A DNA stretch of 64,000 nucleotides from a virus. The number at the start of each line of letters is the position of its first letter. The first letter of the stretch is position 1. The stretch lies in IMG/VR virus record IMGVR_UViG_3300045988_107973; one strand, 5' to 3'. Position numbers and translations under genes: made by a program. The notes under the pieces are model-generated. The model was not told the DNA's origin, did not search any database, and was given only the letters and a program-made list of their open reading frames with translations. Positions 10,095 to 55,262 of the stretch are shown one piece after another.

Positions 10095-10775
10095 ATGGCT
10101 GATACTTATATTAAAATCTGGGATACTTATGAGAGCTACTTTGAGCCCCTTAGTGCTGCTGAGGTGGGGCGTCTAGTACTGGCGATGATGAAATATAAAT
10201 CGTCTGGAATGGAGCCTGAACTCAACGGAAATGAGCGGTATGTGTGGCCTGCTGTAAAGAGAGATTTAATTAAAGATGCCGAATACATCGAAGGTAAGCG
10301 CATTTCTGGAAAAGCTGGCGGTGAAAGCAAGCGTAAGCAAAACGAAGCAAACGCAAGCAAGAGCAAGCTAGAAAAAGAAAAAGAGAAAGAAAAAGATAAG
10401 ATATCGTCTTCGTCTTATGAAGAGACGACAACGACGAAATCTATCGAGGATGTATTTCGAGAGAATATCGGGAAGCTCGGTGCCACAGGAAAGAAGGCTC
10501 TTGATGGATATGTTGAGCGCATGGGCGATGAACTTGTGCTTGCCGTGATTGGAAAGTGTTCTGATCTAGGTGGTAGTAAATGGGCTTATGTGCGAAAAGC
10601 TCTGGATGAAGCGGAATCTTTTGGTTGCAAGACTGCCGATGATTATCGCCGGGTGTGTCCGACTGGTTGTGGTCGCAATACAAGAGTGGATAGACAAGCT
10701 CCCAGTGGAAACGATTGGCTAAAAAACGCAACAAAACGTCGTCCGCTGGTTAAAAGAGAGCTGGAAACAGCATGA
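10095..10775 (+). CDS. DnaD-domain replication initiation / replisome-organizer-like protein
   Basis: C-terminus (ALDGYVERMGDELVLAVIGKC...WAYVRKALDEAESFG) resembles the DnaD/DnaB_2 domain. The N-terminus is replisome-organizer N-domain-like. Confidence 0.45.
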   Translation: MADTYIKIWDTYESYFEPLSAAEVGRLVLAMMKYKSSGMEPELNGNERYVWPAVKRDLIKDAEYIEGKRISGKAGGESKRKQNEANASKSKLEKEKEKEKDKISSSSYEETTTTKSIEDVFRENIGKLGATGKKALDGYVERMGDELVLAVIGKCSDLGGSKWAYVRKALDEAESFGCKTADDYRRVCPTGCGRNTRVDRQAPSGNDWLKNATKRRPLVKRELETA

Positions 10776-10790
10776 ATGGAGGTTTGAATT

Positions 10791-11192
10791 ATGGGGTTGT
10801 TACTTGGTTTGGGTTTGCTTGGAGCAGCGTTTGGTATTGATGCGGTAAAGCAAGCACCGTTCGATAGGGCATATCGCCGTTTGGAAAATGAATGGGGCAC
10901 TTGTACATCGGAAGAGAGTAAGCGGTGTGATGCTTTGAAGTATGCCGTGCAGAACGGTTTATGTTTTGAGAATGAAAAGAAGCCTGTGATTGAGTGGCAG
11001 AAGCTGAGAGATCTTCAGTGGAAGTATCAGCTGGCTGGCATCTCTTGGCCGAGAGAATCTGCGATTCGAGATGTGTGCCGTCTGGCAGCTCGTGATCGTG
11101 GATTTGAGTATAAGGGGTATCTGCGAAACACGTTGACGTTTGGTTATATCACTGATCCGAAAAACATTTGCAAGCTTGGTATTGTAGATTGA
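10791..11192 (+). CDS. hypothetical protein
   Basis: ORF preceded by GGAGG. Confidence 0.4.
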   Translation: MGLLLGLGLLGAAFGIDAVKQAPFDRAYRRLENEWGTCTSEESKRCDALKYAVQNGLCFENEKKPVIEWQKLRDLQWKYQLAGISWPRESAIRDVCRLAARDRGFEYKGYLRNTLTFGYITDPKNICKLGIVD

Positions 11193-11206
11193 AAGGGGAT
11201 TTGAAA

Positions 11207-11512
11207 ATGAATAATAATCGCAGAAAAGCTATTAAGCAGACCATTGATCGCTTTGATTTCATCCGTAAGAAGCTGGAAGAGCTTGTATCGGAGGTCGAAA
11301 GTGTAAAATCAGACGTCGAGAACATCCAGTGGGAAGAAGAAGAGTATCGTGACAACATGCCGGAGAATCTGCAGGGGGGTGAGCGGTATGATAAAGCAGA
11401 TGATGCTTGCACGAATTTGTCTGATGCTGTGGATGCTCTGGAGGATATGATTGGTGCTCTGGATTTTGACTTTGGTGATGTGACCACATCTCTGGAGGAA
11501 GCGATGGAATGA
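11207..11512 (+). CDS. hypothetical acidic coiled-coil protein
   Basis: ATG at 11207 after AAAGGGGA. Confidence 0.4.
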   Translation: MNNNRRKAIKQTIDRFDFIRKKLEELVSEVESVKSDVENIQWEEEEYRDNMPENLQGGERYDKADDACTNLSDAVDALEDMIGALDFDFGDVTTSLEEAME

Positions 11513-13936: not shown

Positions 13937-14713
13937 ATGCCGAGAAGGAAAACAGTAGAAGCACTGCAATTAACGCCGAAAGAAATAGCTCGGAAGTCGC
14001 CTACTTTTATGGAGCTTCCTGAGATGGTAAGCCGTGCTGGTGAGCCTACATACTATTATGATGTGGGAGATGCTGTAGAGATTGGTCATCTTAGCGGATG
14101 CAAGATTGATGAAGTCTGCGACGGTGGTTTATATTACGGTGTTTCTTACGATGATGGATATAGGTACGAAACGTGGTTTAACATTCGTAAAGCAGGTGTT
14201 GAGAAGAAATCTCAACTGACAGAGAATGAAGATATTAAGATTTCTTACTCAAACGTGACCATTGAATCCTTGCTCCACAGGTATTACTTTTTTGGCATCA
14301 ACTGCAATCCGAGTTATCAACGCGGATCTGTGTGGACGGATGATGACCGTGAACTGCTTTTTGAGACAATTTTTATGGGTGGTGAAATCGGTCGATTTGT
14401 TCTAAAAAACATTGACATGGACGAATGGCATGAAAATCAGAACTACCTTTATGAAATCATTGACGGTAAGCAGAGACTTCTGACACTTGCTGCGTTCTAC
14501 GAAGATCGGTTCCGTTATAAAGGATATCTGTACAGTGAACTCTCTAAGAAGGATAAGAGAACCTTTGATGAGACTGCAATTGCTATCGCGGATTTGCGGA
14601 ATCTTTCTAAGAAGGATACGTTGCGTGTGTTCTTGCTTCTGAATCGTGGTGGCAAGGTCGTTTCCAATGCTGTGCTTGACCATGCAAAAGAGCTTCTGAA
14701 CGAAATGGAGTGA
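13937..14713 (+). CDS. DUF262 (ParB/Srx-like, GmrSD N-domain-type) protein
   Basis: Product contains NPSYQRGSVW...LLFETIFMGGEIGRFVL...YEIIDGKQRLLTL, the DUF262 signature (DGQQR-type). Confidence 0.6.
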   Translation: MPRRKTVEALQLTPKEIARKSPTFMELPEMVSRAGEPTYYYDVGDAVEIGHLSGCKIDEVCDGGLYYGVSYDDGYRYETWFNIRKAGVEKKSQLTENEDIKISYSNVTIESLLHRYYFFGINCNPSYQRGSVWTDDDRELLFETIFMGGEIGRFVLKNIDMDEWHENQNYLYEIIDGKQRLLTLAAFYEDRFRYKGYLYSELSKKDKRTFDETAIAIADLRNLSKKDTLRVFLLLNRGGKVVSNAVLDHAKELLNEME

Positions 14714-15992: not shown

Positions 15993-16021
15993 TTGACTTC
16001 TGCAAGGGTATCCTGTATAAT
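15993..16021 (+). promoter_or_regulatory. strong sigma70-like promoter (TTGACT-N17-TATAAT) containing an inverted GTATCCTGT motif
   Basis: TTGACT 15993-98, 17-nt spacer, TATAAT 16016-21. GTATCCTGT lies inside the spacer. Confidence 0.55.
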
Positions 16022-16064: not shown

Positions 16065-16484
16065 ATGGATAGTAATATTGACCCAAAGGTCGGAGAGGTT
16101 TGGTTGGTTGATCTATCCAATGCGACAGGTCACCAGCAGCGCGGTATTCGACCGTTTGTTGTGACGAGCAACAACAAGCGCAACTTCTTCAGTCCCACAA
16201 TCAAAGGGAATCCGTTGTCTTCCAGAATATACAAGCGTTCTCCGGTTCATGTCCTGCTCTCAAAGGAAGATTGCGATTTTCTGGATGTTGACAGTATCGT
16301 TCTTTGTGAAGAGACCGATACACTTAACAAAGGACAGTTCATCAAGAAACTTGGTGTCTTATCGGAGCGTCAGATGAATATGATCGCAATGGCAAGATGC
16401 AAGGATGAACCGTTCTTACTCGCAGCATTCCTGAGCGGCGTACAACATACTATGGAATTTCAGAATTTTGCCGCATTTGCTTGA
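16065..16484 (+). CDS. MazF/PemK-family toxin-like endoribonuclease homolog (solo)
   Basis: N-terminus VGEVWLVDLSNATGHQQRGIRPFVVTS fits the MazF/PemK consensus (G-x-[IV]-x-x-V-D-[FL]...G-x-E-Q-x-G-x-RP-x-VV[VI]S). C-terminus is extended to 139 aa. RBS GAGGAG. Confidence 0.55.
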   Translation: MDSNIDPKVGEVWLVDLSNATGHQQRGIRPFVVTSNNKRNFFSPTIKGNPLSSRIYKRSPVHVLLSKEDCDFLDVDSIVLCEETDTLNKGQFIKKLGVLSERQMNMIAMARCKDEPFLLAAFLSGVQHTMEFQNFAAFA

Positions 16485-17468: not shown

Positions 17469-17492
17469 AGGGGGCTTCAGCCCCTTGATTTT
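17469..17492 (+). terminator. rho-independent terminator-like hairpin
   Basis: aGGGGGCttcaGCCCCtt followed by gatttt, immediately after the 16538..17464 stop. Confidence 0.5.
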
Positions 17493-17511
17493 AACATTGT
17501 AACTATATAAC

Positions 17512-17520
17512 ACAGGATAC
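17512..17520 (+). promoter_or_regulatory. conserved motif AACTATATAACACAGGATAC (copy upstream of 17544 gene)
   Basis: Exact 20-mer shared with 42241-42260; the 9-mer core recurs five times in direct orientation. Confidence 0.5.
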
Positions 17521-17543
17521 AGAAAATAGTATTTGAATGGAGA

Positions 17544-19619
17544 ATGATAACAATGTCTGATTTCAAGAAATTTCGTGCACTGCTGCAGGACCACTTCAAT
17601 GAGATGGTGAAGGGCGAAAACCCTCTGTTTATCACCGATGCAGACGAGGATGAACTGTATAACCTGTATCTCGACAGCTTCCCAGCTGGCACGAATGAGT
17701 TGTTCCGTAAGCGGCGCGAGTATGACTGTTCCTGCTGCCGCCGTTTCGTAAAGAACATCGGTAAGCTGGTTTCCTTTATGGATGGTCAGATGGTTACCGT
17801 CTGGGATTTCGATACCAAGTCCGATGTTTATCAGCCGGTTGTGGATGCGCTGGCTGCCTATGTGAAAACCTGCGCTGTTGTGAACCCGTATTACGTCAGC
17901 CGCAATATGATCTCTGATAGCAAGTTTGGCACTGAGATGAACTATGAGTATGACGCTGATCATAAGGCGGTTCATACCTGGGATCATTTCGTTGTCGAGA
18001 TTCCTCAGCGGTTCATTGTGCGTCCCGATGACGTACCTACCAAGATGGCTCAGTGGCGTGATTCCGCCAATGTGTTCAAGCGCTCTCTGGAGGAGCTAAC
18101 CATGGATGCCGTGGACACCGTGCTTGAGCTGATTGCGCAGAACAGCCTGTATCGCGGTAAGGAGTTTGAATCTCTGGTTCGTGGCTTCAAAATCGATAAG
18201 CAAGTGTATGATCGTCTGCCTGATGAAAAGAAGTCCGCTTATGTTTGGATGGCTCCCGGCGGAGCTTCGATGAACCGGCTTCGCATCCGCAATACGGCAA
18301 TCGGTACTCTGCTGGTGAACCTGAGCGAGGGCATGGACGTGGATGCTGCTGTGTCTGCGTTTGAGGCCATTGTTGCTCCCGCCAACTATAAGCGTCCTAA
18401 GGCGATTTTTACCAAGAAGATGCTGGAAGACGCACAGAAAACCGTCACTGAGTTGGGCTATATGAACAGTCTGGGTCGCCGGTTTGCTACTCTGGACGAC
18501 ATCACCGTAAATAACGTTTTATTCTGTAACCGAGACGCAGCCCCTCGTATTACTGGCGCTGTGAATCCGTTTGAAGCAATGGCGAAGACTGTCGCAATCG
18601 ATCCTAAGAAGTTCGGCCGCGCAGAGGAAATCGGTATTGATAAGTTTATCAAGGACGTGCTGCCCACCGCGACTGGTCTGGAACTGTTTATGGAGAATCG
18701 GTTTGAGAAGAATATGACGTCTCTGATTGCTCCGCAGGATAAGAACGCGCCGTCTATGTTCAAGTGGGCGAATGGTTTCAGTTGGGCGTATACGGGTAAC
18801 GTGGCTGACAGCCAGATCCGTGAGAACGTCAAGAATGCAGGCGGTAAGGTTGATGGCGTGTTGCGTTTCTCTATTCAGTGGAACGATAAGCAGTGCGAGT
18901 GGGATGGAAATGACCTTGATGCCCACTGTGTTGAACCGAACGACTTTGAGATCTATTTTGGCAACAAACGAGATTGGAGTACTGGTGGCAATCTGGATGT
19001 AGATATTATTCATCCTGATCGCGATGAGGCCGCTGTTGAGAATATTACATGGCCTGACATCAAAAAGATGAAGGATGGTAAATACGAGTTCTTTGTTCAT
19101 TGCTTCTCTAACCGTGGCGGCAAAACCGGCTTCCGCGCAGAGATTGAATTTGATGGTCAAATCTACTCCTTCAATTACAATATTCCGCTGCGTCAGACTC
19201 AGAATGTTTCTGTTGCTACTGTTGTGTTGAATGATGGGCAGTTTACTATTAAGGAACATCTCAATAGTTCTACTTCTTCCCGTGAAATCTGGGGTGTGAA
19301 TTCCAATCAGTTTGTACCGGTGTCCGTAGCAATGTATTCTCCGAACTACTGGGACGAGCAGAGTGGTAACGGTAATCGTCATTACTTCTTCATGCTCAAG
19401 GATTGTGTAAACCCTGAAAAGCCCAATGGATTCTACAATGAATTCCTGAAGGCGGAACTGCTACAGCATAAGCGAGTATTCGAGGCTCTTGGTTCTCAGA
19501 TGGCAGTTCAGTCGGTAGATGACCAGCTGTCCGGCGTTGGGTTCTCTGAGACGAAACATGATTCCTTTGTTGTCAAGGTTCAGGGCGCTACTGAGCGGGT
19601 TCTGAAAGTTGTTATTTAA
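17544..19619 (+). CDS. large hypothetical protein (691 aa), first gene of the Pnkp/tRNA operon
   Basis: Long ORF after GGAGAATG. No confident family assignment. Antisense ORFs are judged spurious. Confidence 0.5.
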   Translation: MITMSDFKKFRALLQDHFNEMVKGENPLFITDADEDELYNLYLDSFPAGTNELFRKRREYDCSCCRRFVKNIGKLVSFMDGQMVTVWDFDTKSDVYQPVVDALAAYVKTCAVVNPYYVSRNMISDSKFGTEMNYEYDADHKAVHTWDHFVVEIPQRFIVRPDDVPTKMAQWRDSANVFKRSLEELTMDAVDTVLELIAQNSLYRGKEFESLVRGFKIDKQVYDRLPDEKKSAYVWMAPGGASMNRLRIRNTAIGTLLVNLSEGMDVDAAVSAFEAIVAPANYKRPKAIFTKKMLEDAQKTVTELGYMNSLGRRFATLDDITVNNVLFCNRDAAPRITGAVNPFEAMAKTVAIDPKKFGRAEEIGIDKFIKDVLPTATGLELFMENRFEKNMTSLIAPQDKNAPSMFKWANGFSWAYTGNVADSQIRENVKNAGGKVDGVLRFSIQWNDKQCEWDGNDLDAHCVEPNDFEIYFGNKRDWSTGGNLDVDIIHPDRDEAAVENITWPDIKKMKDGKYEFFVHCFSNRGGKTGFRAEIEFDGQIYSFNYNIPLRQTQNVSVATVVLNDGQFTIKEHLNSSTSSREIWGVNSNQFVPVSVAMYSPNYWDEQSGNGNRHYFFMLKDCVNPEKPNGFYNEFLKAELLQHKRVFEALGSQMAVQSVDDQLSGVGFSETKHDSFVVKVQGATERVLKVVI

Positions 19620-19633
19620 GAGGAGAAATTATT

Positions 19634-20017
19634 ATGGAAAAGAATCTGTTTGAAATTGCAACCCGTAATCGCTATCGCTTCAACTATAAGGGTATTATGA
19701 CTGTTGAAGATCTGTGGGCTCTGAGTGTCGAGGCACTAGATGCGATTTTTAAGACCCTGAATCGTCAGAAGAAGACCGCAGACGAAGACTCCCTGCTGGC
19801 TGTTAAGAGTGCCGAAAATACCGAACTGGCAAACAAGATTGAGCTGGTCAAGTATATCGTGTCTGTCAAGCTGGCTGAATCTGAGGCTCGTGTGGATGCA
19901 GCCGAGAAGAAGGCGCAGCGCGATAAGATTATGAAGATTGTGGCAAAGAAGAAGGACAAGGAGCTGGAAGATATGGACGTAGACCAGCTGATGAAGAAGC
20001 TGGAAGAGTTGAACTAA
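19634..20017 (+). CDS. hypothetical coiled-coil protein (127 aa)
   Basis: ORF after AGGAGAAA. K/E-rich and heptad-like. Confidence 0.45.
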   Translation: MEKNLFEIATRNRYRFNYKGIMTVEDLWALSVEALDAIFKTLNRQKKTADEDSLLAVKSAENTELANKIELVKYIVSVKLAESEARVDAAEKKAQRDKIMKIVAKKKDKELEDMDVDQLMKKLEELN

Positions 20018-20086
20018 AATAGACATTTTATCGTGATTTGGCAACAAATAAATGACGATAATACGTTAAATAAAGGGAGAAAAACG

Positions 20087-22297
20087 ATGAGAACTTTGCT
20101 TCTTTTCCGTGGAGCACCCGGATGCGGGAAGTCCACCTATATTAAAGAGCATGATCTGGAAAAGTATACGCTTAGTGCAGATACGATTCGCCTTATGTGT
20201 CAGGGTGGTCAGGAAACCCCGGCTGGCACAATGGAAATCTCTCCCCAGAACGATGATGTTGTCTGGGATATGCTCTTTAAGCTGTTGGAGGTTCGGATGT
20301 CTCACGGTGAATTTACCGTGATTGATGCAACGAATTCCAAGACGGTCGAAATGAATCGTTATAAGAATCTTGCAAAACAGTATCGTTATCGGATGTATGT
20401 TATTAACATGACGGACCTTCCGATCGAGGAATGCAAACGAAGAAACGCTCAGAGAGAATGGCTGAAGCGAGTTCCTGAAGCGGCTATTGATAAGATGTAC
20501 GCTCGGTTTGCTACTCAAAAAGTTCCTTCTGGCGTGACAGTTCTTCCTTCTACTACGGATGTGATGTCCGATTTGAACTACTGTCCGAATGACTTCAACC
20601 AGTGGAAGAAGATTCATGTCATCGGTGATGTTCATGGCTGTTATACTTGTTTAAGTGAATACCTTGGTGAGATGAAGGACGATGAACTTTATATCTTCGT
20701 TGGTGATTATCTCGATCGTGGCATTGAAAACGTTGAGGTATTCAAGTTCTTGTGTGATGTTGTAAATAACAACCGCAAGAATGTGATCCTTTTGGAAGGG
20801 AATCACGAGCGTTGGCTGAACAAGTGGGGGCATGATGAACCGGTTCAGAGTGAAGAGTTTGCAAACTACACTCGTCCGCAGCTCTTTAAAGCCGGTATTG
20901 ACAAGAACACTGCTCGTAAAATCTATTCCAGAGTTGGCCAATGTGCCTACTTTGAGTATGATGGGAAGCGGTACTTCGTGAGCCACGGTGGTTTGAGTTA
21001 TCTGCCTTATTTTCTTCCTTTTGTATCTGCTGACCAGATGATTAAAGGTGTAGGTCGCTATCCTGATATGCTAACCGTGGCTGAGTCTTGGGAAAAATCG
21101 ATGCCGGATAGCTACATTCAGATCTTCGGTCATCGAAATGTGCAGGATGTTCCTATTGATATGGGGCATCGGTGCTACAACCTCGAAGGAAAAATCGAGT
21201 TTGGTGGATATCTCCGTTGCGTGGAACTTGAACACGGTCAGTCAATCAAATGTGTAGAAACAAAGAACGATGTGTTCCGAAAAGAGGAGCCAAAGACTGA
21301 AACTGCCGTTGAAATGAAAACTGAGTTCGATAACGCAGAACTTGTCAGTAAGATGCGTCAAAGCAAATATGTGTTTGAGAAGCGATTCGGAGATATTTCT
21401 TCTTTCAACTTCTCTCGTGAAGCATTTTATAAGAAGCACTGGGATGAGGTTTCTACCAAAGCAAGGGGGCTGTTCATTAACACAAAGACGAATAAGATTG
21501 TAGCTCGAAGCTATGATAAGTTCTTTGCGGTCGATGAGCGGAATGAAACGAGAATTGGAAACCTACAGAACACTTTGAAGTTCCCGGTGACTGCATATCT
21601 GAAGGAAAACGGATTTCTTGGCATTGTCTCGTATGATGCAGAACAGGATGGTCTGTTCATTGCAAGTAAATCCACTCCTGAAGGGCCTTTTGCAGATATG
21701 TTCCGAAAGATTCTCATGGATACGACTTCCGATGAAGACCGTAAGAATCTGAAGGAAGTTGCAAAAGAGAATGGTTCAGTCATTTTTGAAGTGATTGATC
21801 CTGTAAATGACCCGCATATCATCGAATACATGACACCATATATTGTTTTGCTGGATATTGTTGCGAATGATATGAACTTCAGTGTGATGGATTACGATGA
21901 TCTGAAGCGTGTTGCTGAAAAGTGTCATTTGCAGATTAAGGAGAAGGTTAAGATCTTTGAGAGCTGGAGTGAATTCTATCCTTGGTATGAAGAAGTCATG
22001 AATGAGAATTATCTGTACCGTGGCATCGAGCATATTGAAGGCTTTGTTTTGAGAGATAACAACAATTTTATGTTTAAGCTGAAGCTTCCTTATTATAAGC
22101 ACTGGAAGTTCTTGCGTGGTGTTATGCAGAGCGTCCAGAAGCGTGGCTATTACGAAAATACCGCAAAGTTGTTTACTGCTGAGGATAACCTGTTCTATGG
22201 TTGGATGCGTGAGCAACGAGAGAAAGACCAGGAATCTTTCTGCAAGAAGGGTATTATTCAGTTACGGAATGAATTCTATGAGAATCGGCACGAATAA
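20087..22297 (+). CDS. Pnkp-like polynucleotide kinase-phosphatase with C-terminal ligase-like region (RNA repair enzyme)
   Basis: N-terminal P-loop LLFRGAPGCGKST (kinase). Central calcineurin-like phosphoesterase motifs GDVHGC, GDYLDRG, GNHE, GHR. About 330 further C-terminal residues contain a KENG candidate adenylyltransferase motif I. The domain order matches bacterial Pnkp. Confidence 0.6.
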   Translation: MRTLLLFRGAPGCGKSTYIKEHDLEKYTLSADTIRLMCQGGQETPAGTMEISPQNDDVVWDMLFKLLEVRMSHGEFTVIDATNSKTVEMNRYKNLAKQYRYRMYVINMTDLPIEECKRRNAQREWLKRVPEAAIDKMYARFATQKVPSGVTVLPSTTDVMSDLNYCPNDFNQWKKIHVIGDVHGCYTCLSEYLGEMKDDELYIFVGDYLDRGIENVEVFKFLCDVVNNNRKNVILLEGNHERWLNKWGHDEPVQSEEFANYTRPQLFKAGIDKNTARKIYSRVGQCAYFEYDGKRYFVSHGGLSYLPYFLPFVSADQMIKGVGRYPDMLTVAESWEKSMPDSYIQIFGHRNVQDVPIDMGHRCYNLEGKIEFGGYLRCVELEHGQSIKCVETKNDVFRKEEPKTETAVEMKTEFDNAELVSKMRQSKYVFEKRFGDISSFNFSREAFYKKHWDEVSTKARGLFINTKTNKIVARSYDKFFAVDERNETRIGNLQNTLKFPVTAYLKENGFLGIVSYDAEQDGLFIASKSTPEGPFADMFRKILMDTTSDEDRKNLKEVAKENGSVIFEVIDPVNDPHIIEYMTPYIVLLDIVANDMNFSVMDYDDLKRVAEKCHLQIKEKVKIFESWSEFYPWYEEVMNENYLYRGIEHIEGFVLRDNNNFMFKLKLPYYKHWKFLRGVMQSVQKRGYYENTAKLFTAEDNLFYGWMREQREKDQESFCKKGIIQLRNEFYENRHE

Positions 22298-22363
22298 CTA
22301 AGATATTTTCTTCCTCCGAAAATGCCCTGCGCGGGGCTGACAGCCGGGAAAGACCGGCAATAT

Positions 22364-22446
22364 GGGGATATGGCGGAATTGACAGACGCAAACGATTCAA
22401 ACTCGTTCGGGAAACCATGTGGGTTTAAATCCCACTATCCCTACCA
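22364..22446 (+). tRNA. tRNA-Leu (anticodon CAA), type II, CCA encoded
   Basis: Hand-folded. Acceptor GGGGATA/TATCCCT. D-arm TGGCGGAATTGACAGACGC is nearly identical to the E. coli tRNA-Leu D-arm. Anticodon stem AACGA/TCGTT with loop TTCAAAC. T-arm GTGGGTTTAAATCCCAC. 3' end ACCA. Confidence 0.55.
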
Positions 22447-22522
22447 GTTCATTTACAGATGAGCATGAGTTAGAATGGCAAATCGGAAAGACGGTTGACT
22501 CTTGGACAGACAGGGTTGATAT

Positions 22523-22610
22523 GCCGCAGTGATGGAGTGACATACATTTCCCGCTTAAACCGGGACGCCTGAAACATGGATCGTGGGTTTGAATCCCACC
22601 TGCGGCACCA
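22523..22610 (+). tRNA. tRNA-Leu (anticodon TAA), type II, CCA encoded
   Basis: Acceptor GCCGCAG/CTGCGGC. Anticodon stem TCCCG/CGGGA with loop CTTAAAC. 17-nt variable arm. T-arm GTGGGTTTGAATCCCAC. Confidence 0.55.
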
Positions 22611-22613
22611 TAT

Positions 22614-22687
22614 CCAGAATGTAGTGTAATGGCAGCACGCTGCGTTTGGGACGCAGAAGAGCGATTCGAATTCGACATTTTGGACCA
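22614..22687 (+). tRNA. tRNA-like element with a Pro(TGG)-type anticodon arm; T-arm non-canonical (possible pseudogene)
   Basis: Acceptor CCAGAAT/ATTTTGG + A + CCA pairs perfectly. Anticodon arm CTGCG-TTTGGGA-CGCAG matches E. coli tRNA-Pro. No 5-bp T-stem could be found around TTCGAAT. Confidence 0.25.
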
Positions 22688-22783
22688 GTAGAGTATTCCA
22701 TTTGCTTTTCATGAATACCTTCCTATTATTCTTGGCTCTCCAAAAAAACGGAGCAGTAGGACGCAGCAAGCCAAGTTACATAA

Positions 22784-22873
22784 TGAGGGTTCGCCAAGTG
22801 GTAAATGGCATCTGGCTTTGACCCAGACAGCGTGCTTTATAGCCGATCGTCGGTTCGATCCCGACACCCTCAA
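22784..22873 (+). tRNA. tRNA-Gln (anticodon TTG)-like with an abnormal 21-nt variable region
   Basis: U1-A72 acceptor TGAGGGT/ACCCTCA and D-arm TCGCCAAGTGGTAAATGGC resemble E. coli tRNA-Gln. Anticodon stem TCTGG/CCAGA with loop CTTTGAC. T-arm GTCGGTTCGATCCCGAC. The segment CAGCGTGCTTTATAGCCGATC is inserted at the variable position. No encoded CCA. Confidence 0.45.
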
Positions 22874-22878
22874 TTTAT

Positions 22879-22967
22879 GGACACGTGATGGAATCGCAGA
22901 CATGAAAGATTTAGGCTCTTTTGCCGTTAACAGCGGTGTGCCCGTTCAAATCGGGTCGTGTCCACCA
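22879..22967 (+). tRNA. tRNA-Leu (anticodon TAG), type II, CCA encoded
   Basis: Acceptor GGACACG/CGTGTCC. Anticodon stem AAAGA/TCTTT with loop TTTAGGC. Variable-arm hairpin CCG-TTAACAG-CGG. T-arm GCCCGTTCAAATCGGGT. 3' end ACCA. Confidence 0.6.
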
Positions 22968-23066
22968 TTATCAACTTATGGTTGCGTACCGTTTGTTGAT
23001 CTCCTTTACTATTATTCCCGGCTCGCCAGTGATGGTGCAGTAGTGCTTTGTAAGCTGGGTTTTCAT

Positions 23067-23141
23067 GCAGCGGTCGTACAACGGCTAGTACATCAGCCTT
23101 CCAAGCTGAGGATGAGGTTTCGACTACCTTTCGCTGCTCCA
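23067..23141 (+). tRNA. tRNA-Gly (anticodon TCC), CCA encoded
   Basis: Acceptor GCAGCGG/TCGCTGC. D-stem GTAC/GTAC. Anticodon arm TCAGC-CTTCCAA-GCTGA is identical to E. coli glyT. T-arm GAGGTTTCGACTACCTT. Confidence 0.65.
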
Positions 23142-23322
23142 ATCTTGTATGGGTAGGATCTTTAGCGGTCAGATCCGGCCGCGCCTGTGCAAGATACCAC
23201 CCCGAAAGGGGCTAACGAAATTTTCTATGTCAATTATTCTCGGCTCACTTAAAAGAGTGCAGTTGACCTTTGTAAGCCGAGTATCCCAGCCTAGTGATGC
23301 CAGTTGCTAGGTTGGTTCTTAT

Positions 23323-23398
23323 GCGACTGTAGTTCAATTGGTAGAGCGTCAGATTTCCAATCTGAATGTTGCGGGATCGTGCCCCGTCAGTCGCTCCA
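23323..23398 (+). tRNA. tRNA-Gly (TCC)-like second copy with a non-canonical T-loop (ATCGTGC)
   Basis: Perfect acceptor GCGACTG/CAGTCGC. D-arm TAGTTCAATTGGTAGAGC. Anticodon arm TCAGA-TTTCCAA-TCTGA. T-arm GCGGG-ATCGTGC-CCCGT lacks T54/A58. CCA encoded. Confidence 0.4.
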
Positions 23399-23529
23399 CA
23401 CGCAGCCCATGACGCTGCACCGGTTACTCAGAGCCGAAAGGAACCTATATGTTACGACATGGTTGCTAAGAGTGATCATATTGGAACGCGACGTAGCTTT
23501 GATAGTGGGAATTAAATTCTGAGGTATAC

Positions 23530-23598
23530 GGCTGGATAGCTTAATGGTAAAAGCGCTCGGAAACACCGAGAGATGAGGTTCGATTCCTCCGCTGGCAT
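23530..23598 (+). other. tRNA-like remnant (good D-arm and T-arm, no acceptor pairing, defective anticodon arm)
   Basis: TAGCTTAATGGTAAAAGC D-arm and GAGGTTCGATTCCTC T-arm. The anticodon region CTCGG-AAACA-CCGAG has a 5-nt loop. The ends are a direct repeat (GCTGG), not complementary. Confidence 0.2.
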
Positions 23599-23625
23599 CG
23601 CGCCGACGAAAGTCGGCGTTTGCAT

Positions 23626-23702
23626 GGGATAGTAGCTCAGTTGGTCAGAGCTGGCGGCTCATAACCGCTTGGTCGCGAGTTCAAATCTTGCCTGTCCCAC
23701 CA
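23626..23702 (+). tRNA. tRNA-Met (anticodon CAT; elongator or Ile-lysidine type), CCA encoded
   Basis: Acceptor GGGATAG/CTGTCCC. D-arm TAGCTCAGTTGGTCAGAGC. Anticodon stem GGCGG/CCGCT with loop CTCATAA. T-arm GCGAGTTCAAATCTTGC. Confidence 0.6.
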
Positions 23703-23817
23703 GCCCGAAAGGGCGTACATAAAACCTGCTAGAACTTTTGTTTTATAGGCGAATGAATAATATGACGTTAATACGTCTATCACTTTTCGCTTATTTTCGG
23801 GAGTTTAACTATATTAC

Positions 23818-23826
23818 ACAGGATAC
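23818..23826 (+). promoter_or_regulatory. conserved motif AACTATATTACACAGGATAC (copy upstream of methyltransferase operon)
   Basis: 19 of 20 nt match the 17501-17520 and 42241-42260 copies. AAGGAGG lies 4 nt downstream. Confidence 0.5.
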
Positions 23827-23844: not shown

Positions 23845-25305
23845 CTGAAGCATTACGGAGATATCACACAACTTCATGGATGGCAGATTGAACCGGTTTC
23901 CTGTATCACAGGAGGCAGTCCATGCCAAGATTTGAGTCAGGCCGGTAAACGTGAAGGTTTGACTGGTGAACGCTCTGGATTGTTCCTTGAAATGATTCGT
24001 GTGATTACAGAAATGAGGGAGGCCACCAATGGGGAATGTCCAAAATTCGCAATCTGGGAAAATGTCAGAGGAGCTTTTAGCTCAAGCAAAGGTGAAGACT
24101 TCAGATGTGTGTTGGAAAGATTTGCACGCATTGTCGAGCCAGACGTTTCAATTCCTCGACCTTCAGGAAAGAACGGAAAGTGGGCAAAATCTGGAGCGAT
24201 TTCCGGTAATGGATGGTCTCTTGCATGGAGATTGTTCGACGCTAAATACTGGGGAGTCGCCCAGCGCCGCCAAAGAATCGCGCTTGTCATGGATTTTGGA
24301 GGACAACGTGCCTCAGAAATTCTATTTGAGCGCACGAGCATGTCAGGGGATTCTTGTGAGAGCATCCCGGCGTGGAAAACCTTTGCCCGAACTCCTGAAG
24401 CAAGCGTTGCTGGATATGATCGAATGGTGGAATCCAGGAACTCTGTCACAGGTGGTGCAGAAAGTGAAGGAACAAGAAGGTCTGGAAGAGAAGGAATTGG
24501 ACGAGTATTGGAGTCAAACCATCGAGAGACTTCGACTCGATGCACAGAACCTACAGCCTACACTCTAAAAATCCGCTCTGGATGTGAAGGTGGCGGTAAA
24601 GGCGCTCTGGTTCAAACTGAATTGAGCGCAACGATTTCTACGTTGCAAGACCAGACGCTAATTTGCTTGGTAGAAAATCCCTCCTTACATAATTTAAAAC
24701 AAAAGATCTCGCCGGTAGTATTTGAGAGTCACAGCCAGGACGCTCGATACACTCAGCAGGGTGATACAAGTCCGACTTGTACTGCTCAGTGGGGAACAGG
24801 CGGTAATAATATGCCGCTGGTCGTTGAAAAGAAAGCCTTTGCAATGCAGCGCATTGGTGAGTACAAGGAAAGCGAACACGCCAGCACGATGAAATCTCGT
24901 GATTATAAGGACGCTACTGATCTGATTGCAGAGAAGGAAACGAAGAATCTACGATGGATTGTTCGCCGCTTGACTCCTTTGGAGGATGAACGGTTACAGG
25001 GTTTCCATGACGGATGGACTGATATCGGTGATTGGATCGATGAGAATGGGAAGAAGCACAAGACTTCTGACGCAGCTCGTTACAAGGCGCTCGGCAATTC
25101 GATTGCTTTGCCTCAGTGGTATTGGATTTGCCAGAAGATGAAACCGTATATTGGTGAAAATCCCACGCTTGGCAGTCTTTTCGATGGAATTGGTGGCTTT
25201 CCGCTTGTCTTTGAAAGTACGTATGGTGATGGTACTGCTATCTGGGCGAGCGAAGTGGATAGTTTTTGCATCGCAGTTACAAAGAAAAGATTCCCAGAAA
25301 ATTAA
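23845..25305 (+). CDS. circularly permuted DNA (cytosine-5)-methyltransferase (motif order IV-VI-VIII-TRD-X-I-II/III)
   Basis: In the frame opening after TGA 23839-41: GDITQLHGW...GGSPCQDLSQAGKREG (IV), FAIWENVRGAF (VI), QRRQRIALV (VIII), ALGNSIALP (X). At the C-terminus: SLFDGIGGF (I) and ASEVDSFCIAVTKKRFPEN (II/III). There is no in-frame ATG. CTG 23845 sits 8 nt after AAGGAGG. ATG 23838 is in the -1 frame (17-aa ORF). Confidence 0.6.
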   Translation: MKHYGDITQLHGWQIEPVSCITGGSPCQDLSQAGKREGLTGERSGLFLEMIRVITEMREATNGECPKFAIWENVRGAFSSSKGEDFRCVLERFARIVEPDVSIPRPSGKNGKWAKSGAISGNGWSLAWRLFDAKYWGVAQRRQRIALVMDFGGQRASEILFERTSMSGDSCESIPAWKTFARTPEASVAGYDRMVESRNSVTGGAESEGTRRSGREGIGRVLESNHRETSTRCTEPTAYTLKIRSGCEGGGKGALVQTELSATISTLQDQTLICLVENPSLHNLKQKISPVVFESHSQDARYTQQGDTSPTCTAQWGTGGNNMPLVVEKKAFAMQRIGEYKESEHASTMKSRDYKDATDLIAEKETKNLRWIVRRLTPLEDERLQGFHDGWTDIGDWIDENGKKHKTSDAARYKALGNSIALPQWYWICQKMKPYIGENPTLGSLFDGIGGFPLVFESTYGDGTAIWASEVDSFCIAVTKKRFPEN

Positions 25306-35512: not shown

Positions 35513-36274
35513 ATGGTTTACATTACAGGTGATATTCATGGCGAATTTTACCGTTTTTTTAAATTAGAGAAATTCTGCCATAAACATAATCTTGGAAAGA
35601 ATGACTGGATCATTTGCCTTGGCGATGTCGGTTTGAACTACTACGGCAAAGACGACCCTCGTGAATGGAGTATTAAGACTATTGCCGCAGATATCCCTGC
35701 GAATCTGTTTTGTATTCATGGAAATCATGAACGCCGCCCATCTCGTAAAGATGGCTATAAAATAAAGGAAATCAGTGGAGATATTTGCGGTAAAGTGTGG
35801 TATAACCCACATTATCCTAATCAGTATTTTGCTATTGATGGCGAGGTTTACCAGATTCTTGCTGATAGGGAAATTTTAAACTGTCTTGTCTGTGGCGGAG
35901 CCTATTCTGTAGATAAATATTATCGGTTAGATCGTGGATGGAATTGGTGGCCGGATGAACAGCCTAATGAGAAGACTAAGAAAAAGATCTGGAATATTAC
36001 ACATGACCATCAAATCGATGATATTGATGTTATGCTCACGCATACCTGTCCATTCTGGTTCATTCCAACTGAATTGTTTATCGGTGGTATTGATCAAAGC
36101 ACAGTAGACCAGTCAACTGAAATATTCTTTGATAATATATACGAATGCTATCCTAACGATTGTAAACCATTCTGGTACTTCGGCCATTTCCATGGTAACA
36201 AGTACACCGATGACTATGTGATGCTTTTCGACGATATTATTAAGTTTGGAGATAAGGTGAAGAGTGATGAGTGA
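35513..36274 (+). CDS. calcineurin-like metallophosphoesterase (lambda Ser/Thr phosphatase-like)
   Basis: Motifs GDIHGE, LGDVG, HGNHE and GHFHG. Confidence 0.55.
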   Translation: MVYITGDIHGEFYRFFKLEKFCHKHNLGKNDWIICLGDVGLNYYGKDDPREWSIKTIAADIPANLFCIHGNHERRPSRKDGYKIKEISGDICGKVWYNPHYPNQYFAIDGEVYQILADREILNCLVCGGAYSVDKYYRLDRGWNWWPDEQPNEKTKKKIWNITHDHQIDDIDVMLTHTCPFWFIPTELFIGGIDQSTVDQSTEIFFDNIYECYPNDCKPFWYFGHFHGNKYTDDYVMLFDDIIKFGDKVKSDE

Positions 36275-46038: not shown

Positions 46039-46830
46039 ATGGTAGTTAAACTGATTACACATACTCCTGACCCTGAAAAGGTGGTAGCTGCCGCTGCAAA
46101 ACTGTGTTACTCCAATTCGAGTATTCAGGATTTGATGGATGGACTGACCGATGAGAAGGTCGATGAGTTTCTGAATCGGCTTTCTAGCCTTGGTCACGCT
46201 AGTCCTACGGAGCACGCGACTTTTACTTTTGGAATTGAAGATGTGAGCCGGTCTTTACTTACCCAGATTACCCGGCATCGCATTGCGTCATTCAGTGTAC
46301 AGAGTCAGCGCTATGTGCGAATGAATAATGTAGAGGTCATCGTCCCTGACGTTATCGATGATGATAGCGAAGCAAGAGAGGTATTCAAACAGGCAATTCA
46401 GACAGCTGAATATTCATATAAGCACCTGTGTCAGATTCTTGAGGACAAGATTACTGAGGAACTAATGGTTGCTGATTCTCGTCTGACTGAGAAAAAAGCA
46501 CGCGCAAAAGCATCCAAGATTGCAAATGAGAATGCACGTTCCGTTTTGCCAAATGCTTGTTCTACGAAGATGATTGTTACAATGAACGCTCGTTCGCTGA
46601 ATAATTTCTTTAACCTGCGTTGTTGTGAGCGAGCGCAGCCGGAAATCAGGGAGCTTGCAACTGAGATGCTGAAGCTTGTTTATCCGATTGCTCCTCATCT
46701 GTTTAAGTGTGCTGGTCCCAACTGCTGTGGTAACGGTTGTACCGAAGGTATGATGTCTTGTGGTAAATCCCATGAGATTCGTGATAAATACAACAAATTG
46801 AAACAGGAGGCATTAAATGGAAACACTTGA
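46039..46830 (+). CDS. thyX: flavin-dependent thymidylate synthase ThyX
   Basis: ThyX signature RHRIASFSVQSQRYV (RHRxxSxxxxSxRY). Confidence 0.75.
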   Translation: MVVKLITHTPDPEKVVAAAAKLCYSNSSIQDLMDGLTDEKVDEFLNRLSSLGHASPTEHATFTFGIEDVSRSLLTQITRHRIASFSVQSQRYVRMNNVEVIVPDVIDDDSEAREVFKQAIQTAEYSYKHLCQILEDKITEELMVADSRLTEKKARAKASKIANENARSVLPNACSTKMIVTMNARSLNNFFNLRCCERAQPEIRELATEMLKLVYPIAPHLFKCAGPNCCGNGCTEGMMSCGKSHEIRDKYNKLKQEALNGNT

Positions 46831-54369: not shown

Positions 54370-54738
54370 ATGGCGAAATACATTCCTGAAAATGCTCGAT
54401 GGGCGGATATCACTCCTTTGCTAGATGAGATTGACAGTGGCTTAAAACATATGCGCTTTTATGACGAACAAGATGACTATTCTGATTTTCTAGCAGAAGA
54501 ACGCGAAGATCTACTGAGGCTTCCGAAAGCAGAATCTAATACGGTTCGCGCTATCGCACACTGGGATCACTGGTCATGCGATGACGAAGAAGACTTTGTA
54601 TATCATTGCTCTAACTGTAGTGAACAGTTTTACGAAGATTTCTTTTATCCTCGTGAGAATCCTTGTGTTGGTTCTGAAAAGTATAAACCTTTTAAGTATT
54701 GCCCTTATTGCGGGGCGAAAATGGAGGGCGTTAAATGA
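54370..54738 (+). CDS. hypothetical zinc-ribbon protein; paralog of the 43580..43879 product
   Basis: C-terminal AHWDHWSCDDEED...YCPYCGAKMEG. Confidence 0.4.
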   Translation: MAKYIPENARWADITPLLDEIDSGLKHMRFYDEQDDYSDFLAEEREDLLRLPKAESNTVRAIAHWDHWSCDDEEDFVYHCSNCSEQFYEDFFYPRENPCVGSEKYKPFKYCPYCGAKMEGVK

Positions 54739-55262
54739 ACTACGCTAAAATTGTTCCATGTGATATTGCGAATGGGCCAGGCGTAAGAGTCACGTTGTTC
54801 TGCGCGGGATGTAACCATCATTGCCCCGGCTGTCAGAATCCTACCACATGGGACCCGAATGGTGGTCAGCCATTCACAGATGAAATGCTTGATAAAATTG
54901 TAGATTTACTTCGACCTGATTATATTCAAGGGCTTACGCTCACTGGTGGAGATCCACTATATCCTGAGAACAGAGAAGTTGTTGAGAAAATCGTCCGTCG
55001 TGTATGGGCTGAATTTCAGGACAAAAAAGACGTTTGGCTCTGGACTGGATATAAGTGGGAAGAATTGTGGAATCAGGATGGGCTCGTAGCTGACATTCTT
55101 GCTAACATCAACGTCCTCGTAGATGGTCCTTTTATTGAAGCAGAAAAAGATATTTCACTTCCATACATGGGAAGCAAGAACCAACGAGTAATTGATATTA
55201 AATGGAGTCTTGGATATAAAGAGCCAACCCTTTGGTGGGCTCCAGAAGAGAAAGGAAAATAA
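54735..55262 (+). CDS. nrdG: anaerobic ribonucleotide reductase activating protein NrdG (radical SAM)
   Basis: Product contains CDIANGPGVRVTLFCAGCNHHCPGCQN, the CxxxCxxC cluster typical of NrdG. Confidence 0.7.
   Translation: MNYAKIVPCDIANGPGVRVTLFCAGCNHHCPGCQNPTTWDPNGGQPFTDEMLDKIVDLLRPDYIQGLTLTGGDPLYPENREVVEKIVRRVWAEFQDKKDVWLWTGYKWEELWNQDGLVADILANINVLVDGPFIEAEKDISLPYMGSKNQRVIDIKWSLGYKEPTLWWAPEEKGK

Follow-up and report, generated by a model that had tools for sequence, protein, structure and literature searches.

The IMG/VR virus record IMGVR_UViG_3300045988_107973 was analyzed over a stretch of 64,000 nucleotides (nt), hereafter the window, which contains a group of three genes followed by an array of transfer RNA (tRNA) genes, all on the plus strand. 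An upstream integrase-like gene ends in a terminator-like G+C (guanine plus cytosine) hairpin with a T-run (17469..17485). Downstream of this hairpin lie a promoter-like or regulatory element, TAACTATATAACACAGGATAC (17500..17520), a repeated motif with a presumed regulatory function; an open reading frame (ORF) for a protein of 691 amino acids (aa) (17544..19619; phrog_1735/PF26675); an ORF for a 127-aa coiled-coil protein (19634..20017; phrog_2018); the gene for a putative trifunctional RNA repair enzyme of 736 aa (20087..22297; phrog_8238); a conserved leader ending in GCCCTGCGCGGGGCTGACAGCCGGGAAAGACCGGCAATATGG (22298..22363), kept across relatives; the tRNA array (22364..23702); and a terminator-like hairpin in the sequence that closes the unit (23764..23777). 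The original prediction for this DNA had described three co-oriented ORFs running into a tRNA cluster behind a conserved element and a terminator, and this layout was recovered (ORFs at 17544-22297). That prediction also regarded the three proteins as one tRNA-repair module built around a bacterial Pnkp-like enzyme. We favor another reading, to which we assign a probability of roughly 75%, namely that the region is a mosaic in which an autonomous RNA heal-and-seal enzyme occupies a variable slot in front of the tRNA array, beside an unrelated module made of the 691-aa and 127-aa proteins (the 691/127 pair).

The coordinates 20087..22297 given for the enzyme gene were correct, whereas the length of 754 aa given for its product corresponds to a reading from an upstream GTG at 20033. 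The start codon is the ATG at 20087, which follows a strong ribosome-binding site, AAAGGGAG; the PHROG and Pfam alignments start at this ATG, the 736-aa ORF was found in all relatives, and public data already include a gene call for exactly this protein. With this start, the gap after the 127-aa gene is 69 nt instead of the predicted 14–15 nt, which applies to the junction between the 691-aa and 127-aa genes (14 nt). Three Pfam domains, each above its own cutoff, were identified in the enzyme: a P-loop polynucleotide-kinase-like domain (20096..20512; PF13671 AAA_33, E = 1e-22) with the P-loop G9-T17 and the motif S30-A-D32-x-x-R35; a binuclear metallophosphoesterase domain (20609..21145; PF00149, E = 2e-15) with GDVHG at residue 180, GDYLDRG at 206, GNHE at 238, H300, and GH at 348-349; and an Rnl1/Trl1-type RNA ligase nucleotidyltransferase domain (21458..22096; PF09511 RNA_lig_T4_1, E = 1.6e-39, 136.5 bits against a cutoff of 28.3, profile positions 1-227 of 227) with a C-terminal extension to 22297. 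The ligase motifs were motif I (K506-E-N-G), E568, motif IV (E651-G-F-V), and motif V (K664-L-K666). All the motifs on which the original prediction had relied (GAPGCGKST, GDVHG(C), GDYLDRG, GNHE, and KENG) are present, and the proposed kinase/phosphatase/ligase fusion with an adenylyltransferase motif I was confirmed by the Pfam domains, the matches in the PDB, and motifs I, IV, and V. The phosphatase is a calcineurin-type metallophosphoesterase, and no match to an HAD-type (DxDxT) 3'-phosphatase was found in the enzyme.

Comparison with PDB sequences separated the two halves of this polypeptide. The kinase domain matched the kinase of Clostridium thermocellum Pnkp (4gp7; E = 3e-6), and the phosphatase domain matched lambda phosphatase (1g5b; E = 2e-7) as well as PPP enzymes. 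The C-terminal ~300 aa aligned end to end with the ligase domain of fungal Trl1 (9qw7; E = 4e-17), with K506ENG opposite the KANG of Trl1, and also matched T4 Rnl1 (2c5u; E = 6e-7). Only Trl1 and T4 Rnl1 were matched by the C-terminal 305 aa at E ≤ 10, and no Pnkp ligase chain was among these matches. Moreover, TIGR04075, NCBI's equivalog model for bacterial Pnkp, scored 76.6 bits against a cutoff of 750, and its alignment covered profile positions 9-323 of 851, corresponding to the kinase and phosphatase only. The enzyme shares its domain order with bacterial Pnkp, and their kinases and binuclear metallophosphatases are homologous; the bacterial Pnkp ligase, however, belongs to a Pnkp-specific, Hen1-activated family, whereas the ligase described here belongs to the Rnl1/Trl1 family. 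The prediction of a bacterial Pnkp-type ligase was therefore abandoned: judged by its sequence relatives, the healing half of the enzyme is Pnkp-like and the sealing half Rnl1/Trl1-like. In bacterial Pnkp, the active site of the ligase is blocked by an insertion domain and unlocked by Hen1 (PMC4411300). As a ligase of the Rnl1/Trl1 type is self-sufficient, neither a Hen1-like activator nor a substitute for one would be needed. Consistent with the original prediction, no Hen1-like methyltransferase was detected among the ~36 window ORFs scanned, in which small ORFs were not covered exhaustively, and the methyltransferases found there were DNA methylases. Because no Hen1 accompanies the enzyme, 2'-O-methyl "immunization" of the mended junction is not expected.

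Two other known repair systems resemble the enzyme. T4 Pnkp and Rnl1, which repair PrrC-cut tRNA-Lys, share with the enzyme the same three chemical steps, the ligase family, and the phage setting, but according to PMC3592404 they are two separate proteins with a 3'-phosphatase of the DxDxT/HAD type, whereas the enzyme of the window is a single polypeptide with a calcineurin-type phosphatase. The fungal and plant tRNA ligase Trl1, to which the ligase module and its C-terminal domain were best matched, is likewise a trifunctional heal-and-seal polypeptide; as described in PMC6379707, its domains run from ligase through kinase to 2H cyclic phosphodiesterase, and the ends that it joins are 3'-OH,2'-PO4, in contrast to the order kinase, metallophosphatase, and ligase found here.

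The same domain order has been catalogued in phages. The enzyme matched phrog_8238, annotated as "RNA ligase" (E = 2.3e-225; residues 19-751 in the 754-aa reading, profile positions 1-732 of 737), and by this alignment is a new member of that family. Across GenBank, 113 phage records contain collinear homologs, annotated as "RNA ligase" or "polynucleotide kinase"; most come from Twort-like Staphylococcus phages, SPbeta-like Bacillus phages, and phages of Lactobacillus and Brochothrix. Those of Staphylococcus phage Twort (ORF008), SPbetaL2, Goe11, and Goe12 are full-length relatives with 38-45% identity and the same kinase-metallophosphatase-Rnl1 ligase order, and the motif residues of the kinase, phosphatase, and ligase were all invariant in the Twort and SPbetaL2 homologs (42-45% identical).

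If they formed a shared module, the enzyme and the 691/127 pair should stay together; the relatives in IMG/VR showed the opposite. Two samples of loci were examined: 80 loci picked by the 691-aa gene (80-100% identity) and 80 picked by the 736-aa enzyme (89-99% identity), the latter with flanks of ±5 kb. The 127-aa gene was kept in all 80 loci of the first sample, whereas the enzyme was present in only five of them, leaving 75 with the pair alone, and it was missing even where the 691-aa protein is 100% identical (three loci). Conversely, in 71 of the 80 enzyme-selected loci an integrase-like gene, a terminator, and the promoter-like element were followed directly by the enzyme gene, with the element ~20 nt before it and no 691/127 gene within 5 kb; the arrangement of the window (691-aa gene, 127-aa gene, enzyme) was seen in only nine. 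The hairpin at 17469-17485 also precedes the promoter-like element in relatives. Only four contigs were common to both samples, all with the adjacent arrangement. A second clade carrying the pair with no tRNAs nearby (~55 contigs) contributed none of the enzyme-bearing contigs, and in one variant (L119) the 3' flank of the 127-aa gene directly follows the promoter element, as expected from deletion of the pair. The more distant relatives Twort and SPbetaL2 have the enzyme and no 691/127 pair within 5 kb. In close relatives the pair and the enzyme thus each occur apart from the other. The 691-aa and 127-aa proteins are therefore not partners of the enzyme, and the predicted three-protein repair module, whose genes should have remained together in related phages, is not supported. 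In the lineage of the window, the pair has probably been inserted behind the promoter element and ahead of the repair gene, behaving like a mobile cassette.

The pair itself has a wide distribution. The 691-aa protein had been described as lacking a recognizable family, whereas it belongs to phrog_1735 (E = 4e-257; residues 4-690, profile positions 1-672 of 673), and PF26675 was a precomputed annotation on all 120 homologs among the matches listed; the Pfam set that we scanned lacked the PF26675 model. The family comprised 3982 cluster representatives at 50% identity, and 542 phage records in GenBank contain the gene, among them Ackermannviridae, Bastille-like Bacillus phages, phiCbK-like Caulobacter phages, Mydovirus, and phages of Alteromonas, Vibrio, Microcystis, and Cellulophaga. 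The 127-aa protein matched phrog_2018 (E = 2e-35) and is 42% identical to BCU4_0074 and PhaxI gp089. Among eight diverse cultured phages inspected for the neighborhood of the 691-aa gene, hidden Markov model searches found a homolog of the 127-aa protein in seven; it directly follows the 691-aa homolog in six (BCU4, PhaxI, CcrSwift, AD45-P1, KpS11, and LMM01) and lies 3.6 kb from it in Cellulophaga phage phi17:2. No RNA ligase adjoined the 691-aa gene in these eight phages. The neighbors of the pair were instead genes for a clamp loader, DNA polymerase, ribonucleotide reductase, thymidylate synthase, MazG, an Apyc1-like hydrolase, an AAA ATPase, and salvage of nicotinamide adenine dinucleotide (NAD). 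On this comparative sequence evidence, the pair is a separate, ancient two-gene module that is widespread in large phages, where it is usually surrounded by genes for replication, nucleotide metabolism, and counter-defense.

In contrast to its loose association with the pair, the enzyme is closely tied to the tRNAs among its near relatives. ARAGORN called eight tRNAs at 22364-23702, namely Leu(CAA), Leu(UAA), Pro(UGG), Gln(UUG), Leu(UAG), two Gly(UCC), and Met/Ile(CAU), which scored 44-66 bits with Rfam RF00005 (gathering score 29); a weak ninth candidate at 23531-23597 reached 30 bits, so that the predicted number of seven to nine was accurate. The tRNA leader directly followed the enzyme gene in 79 of the 80 enzyme-selected loci. 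This ~60-nt leader contains two short hairpins, GCCCTGCGCGGGGC and GCCGGGAAAGACCGGC. We compared the slot between the 127-aa gene and the leader across a sub-clade with MazF-like and integrase-like genes and the tRNA array (25 sister loci and the window) and found three states, all with the leader and its hairpins: an empty slot of ~88 nt (12 loci), a gene for a 221-aa protein (eight loci), and the 736-aa enzyme (six loci, including the window). The 221-aa protein is an RNA ligase of family PF09414 (E = 2e-16; motif EKVDGTN). That a second, unrelated RNA ligase serves as alternative cargo of the slot speaks for a functional connection to the tRNA array and against a chance one. The stand-alone ligase lies at 10546-11211 in locus L001 and was also found in L003, L004, L006, L025, L071, and L076; it is disrupted in L062. 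As a separate observation, tRNA-Gln(UUG) (22784-22873) measures 90 nt and has an extended, class-II-like variable arm, whereas its counterparts in L005, L024, and L028 are of normal size (71-72 nt). A connection between the 90-nt form and the presence of the ligase was considered and rejected, as L024 and L028 carry both the enzyme and the normal tRNA.

The flanking signals suggest how these genes might be expressed. Where 0.29 copies would be expected, the window has seven of ACAGGATAC, the 9-mer core of the promoter-like element, and the copy at 17512-17520 lies 24 nt upstream of the start codon of the 691-aa gene. The extended consensus, A(A/G)CTATAT(A/T)A(C/T)ACAGGATAC, is located 10-25 nt before ribosome-binding sites and could be a promoter or a regulator-binding site. 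The next plus-strand copy (23806-23826) follows just past the tRNA array and the hairpin at 23764-23777. These positions make a single transcription unit of 17.5-23.8 kb, read from TAACTATATAACACAGGATAC, plausible but unproven, and the enzyme and the tRNA array would then probably be co-transcribed. From its domains, we infer that the Pnkp-type P-loop kinase would phosphorylate 5'-OH ends, that the lambda-phosphatase-type metallophosphoesterase would clear 2',3'-cyclic or 3'-phosphate ends, and that the Rnl1/Trl1-type ligase, adenylylated on K506, would seal the healed ends, so that a single polypeptide could suffice. Together with the extra tRNAs, the enzyme would most likely protect translation during infection by resealing RNAs, tRNAs in particular, that host ribotoxins or anticodon nucleases have cut. 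A role in RNA repair, possibly against anticodon nucleases, is accordingly retained from the original prediction as the best reading for the enzyme alone, and is dropped for the 691-aa and 127-aa proteins as its partners.

Several observations weigh against an enzyme dedicated to the tRNA array and unconnected with its upstream neighbors. The array is kept without any ligase in 12 of the 25 sister loci; the phages can therefore do without repair, and an insertion hotspot close to the promoter could account for the adjacency. All of the tRNAs decode codons that are rare or end in A or G, in a phage with 41% G+C, which also fits compensation of codon usage. The phrog_8238 genes of Twort and the SPbeta-like phages have other neighbors and no tRNA array beside them, and the product of an upstream PemK/MazF-like toxin gene in the window is another possible source of repairable breaks. 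Despite the assortment of the genes, the enzyme may interact facultatively with the pair in the minority of phages that have both, and the 71 phages with the enzyme alone could carry the pair beyond the ±5 kb examined.

The first of these points can be extended into an alternative in which the tRNA array compensates for codon usage of an AT-richer phage in a GC-richer host and the slot is a promoter-proximal hotspot, with no unit of repair and resupply. The codons decoded by the array (TTA, TTG, CTA, CCA, CAA, and GGA types) agree with it, as do the empty slots, the insertion of the 691/127 pair at the same promoter, and the presence of close homologs of the 691-aa protein in Faecalibacterium prausnitzii assemblies. 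A neutral hotspot, however, would be unlikely to receive only RNA ligases as slot cargo, from two unrelated genes, and earlier work has described phages that combine tRNA provision with RNA repair (PMC7824862). We consider this alternative unlikely.

A different possibility is that the enzyme performs genuine RNA repair on other substrates, such as messenger or ribosomal RNA cut by toxins, including the phage's own MazF-like protein, or that it serves other RNA processing, its position beside the tRNAs being incidental. The PemK/MazF-like endoribonuclease toxin gene (PF02452, E = 3e-19) lies at 16065-16484, two genes and 1 kb upstream, and is conserved in all relatives of the clade; no antitoxin for it was identified. 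Along with the Twort and SPbetaL2 homologs, which stand apart from tRNAs, this gene gives the proposal some substance, but MazF is there with or without the enzyme, both slot cargos are RNA ligases at the head of the tRNA array, and the enzyme is joined to the tRNA leader in nearly all of its relatives. Furthermore, tRNA anticodon loops are the established substrate of Rnl1 and Trl1 relatives (PMC6379707). Substrates other than tRNA thus appear quite unlikely as the explanation of the locus.

Finally, we regard it as very improbable that the 691-aa and 127-aa proteins and the Pnkp-like enzyme work as a single tRNA-repair complex, in which the 691-aa protein would replace Hen1 as the activator or act as a new component of repair. 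In favor of this model, the three genes share their orientation, lie close together, and follow one promoter-like element, both in the window and in the nine enzyme-selected relatives of like arrangement, and the 691-aa protein has no known function. However, the pair is often found without the enzyme and the enzyme without the pair nearby, the pair is common across phages in which no RNA ligase adjoins it, members of the enzyme family are found in Twort-like and SPbeta-like phages that lack the pair in their vicinity, the Rnl1/Trl1-type ligase is not of the Hen1-dependent kind and needs no activator, and the 691-aa protein has neither a methyltransferase nor a nucleotidyltransferase fold, a TerD-like sandwich being its only recognizable one.

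Under the mosaic reading, and if the inferred activities are true, the enzyme would represent a compact single-polypeptide heal-and-seal system that combines Pnkp-type healing domains with a Trl1-like ligase. The slot polymorphism in near-identical gut phages would provide a natural experiment on RNA repair and phage tRNAs against tRNA-cleaving defenses in gut Firmicutes. Separating the 691/127 pair from the enzyme stops the spread of a false annotation, and the pair, one of the more widespread uncharacterized two-gene modules of large phages, becomes a study target in Kuttervirus, Bastille-like Bacillus phages, and phiCbK. More speculatively, and only as a tentative possibility, the pair may be an ancient phage machine of an undescribed functional class, with a 691-aa gene found in more than 500 cultured phages, those of cyanobacteria and Bacteroidota among them, and a product made of a TerD-like Ca2+-binding sandwich and otherwise novel folds with invariant Cys, His, and acidic residues, and, separately, the fusion enzyme may provide self-sufficient tRNA repair co-transcribed with replacement tRNAs as one anti-ribotoxin unit.

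To characterize the 691-aa protein, we modeled it with AlphaFold2 from 64 diverse homologs (predicted local distance difference test score, pLDDT, 87.7). One domain showed the TerD beta-sandwich fold (18846..19259, plus strand; ~aa 435-572, with approximate boundaries), whereas no sequence-level match to TerD or any other Pfam family was found even at E ≤ 10 in the set without PF26675. The protein differs from the Ca2+-binding beta-sandwich proteins of the TerD family in being phage-encoded and paired with a coiled-coil protein. In its N-terminal alpha/beta domain, C65 and H148 are invariant and D61 and C62 near-invariant; H613 and E633 are invariant in the C-terminal domain. The N-terminal domain, the helical middle, and the C-terminal domain (~550 residues outside the TerD-like part) had no PDB relative by structure or profile, and searches of PDB sequences by phmmer and with the 64-sequence profile returned nothing below E 0.1. 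Scans of NCBIfam and PADLOC gave nothing, related-locus scans with distant representatives of the family gave no match, and the viral matches of the model in BFVD by Foldseek were all "uncharacterized" proteins. The literature on PF26675 and on DUF2135/YfaP/COG4676 was uninformative. Some GenBank homologs are labeled "DNA-directed RNA polymerase", for which we found no support, and the label "DUF2135/YfaP" of others probably reflects the same beta-sandwich. From the early-region neighborhoods with nucleotide, NAD, and counter-defense genes, one may guess, with low confidence, at a function in host takeover or counter-defense.

Additional genes accompany the pair in the second clade. Between its 691-aa and 127-aa genes lie one to six tandem paralogous genes of ~90-100 aa (L007 10076-11250; L063 10079-11550; L012 10076-10670; L033 10076-11560), and another ends just before the 691-aa gene. 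Their products begin with KxGDxV, share the conserved C-terminus WTD(D/E)MF…ECxCESLL, and have no Pfam match. The 127-aa gene of this clade is followed by a gene for a 367-aa AAA ATPase, absent from the window, which is 47% identical to BCU4_0073, a protein also encoded after the pair in Bacillus phage BCU4. Past the ATPase, genes resembling phosphoribosyl pyrophosphate (PRPP) synthase, NAMPT, a macro-domain protein, NadE, and nicotinamidase were read by eye as an NAD+ salvage set, of which the PRPP-synthase-like protein, the only member scanned, gave a weak Pribosyltran match (ATPase and NAD+ stretch: L012 11093-17100; L007 11677-17400; L048 10773-16700). In BCU4 (L081 9863-10609), an Apyc1-like (anti-Pycsar) hydrolase of the metallo-beta-lactamase fold is encoded two genes downstream of the trio of 691-aa, 127-aa, and ATPase genes.

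The window as a whole represents the early, DNA-metabolism arm of a large human-gut phage, with related contigs of 46-150 kb. All of its genes are on the plus strand, and they include a DnaB-like helicase, primase, RecJ, DNA polymerase, an ExoV/Dda helicase, DNA ligase, NrdD, ThyX, several DNA methylases, and integrases. Copies of the extended motif are located at 16008, 17512, 23818, 28120, 42112, 42183, and 42252; those at 16008 and 42112 are on the minus strand despite the uniform orientation of the genes, and three are bunched at 42.1-42.26 kb, ahead of the DNA ligase gene. Accessory genes at 13937-14713, 35513-36274, 46039-46830, and 54735-55262 encode a GmrSD_N (DUF262)-like protein, a second calcineurin-like phosphoesterase, ThyX, and a radical-SAM NrdG-like activase. 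Just past the tRNA array, the ORF at 23932-25305 encodes a C5 cytosine methyltransferase that matched Pfam in two stretches; its ENV motif lies near the N-terminus and FDGIGG (motif I) near the C-terminus, an order from which the protein looks circularly permuted or fused.

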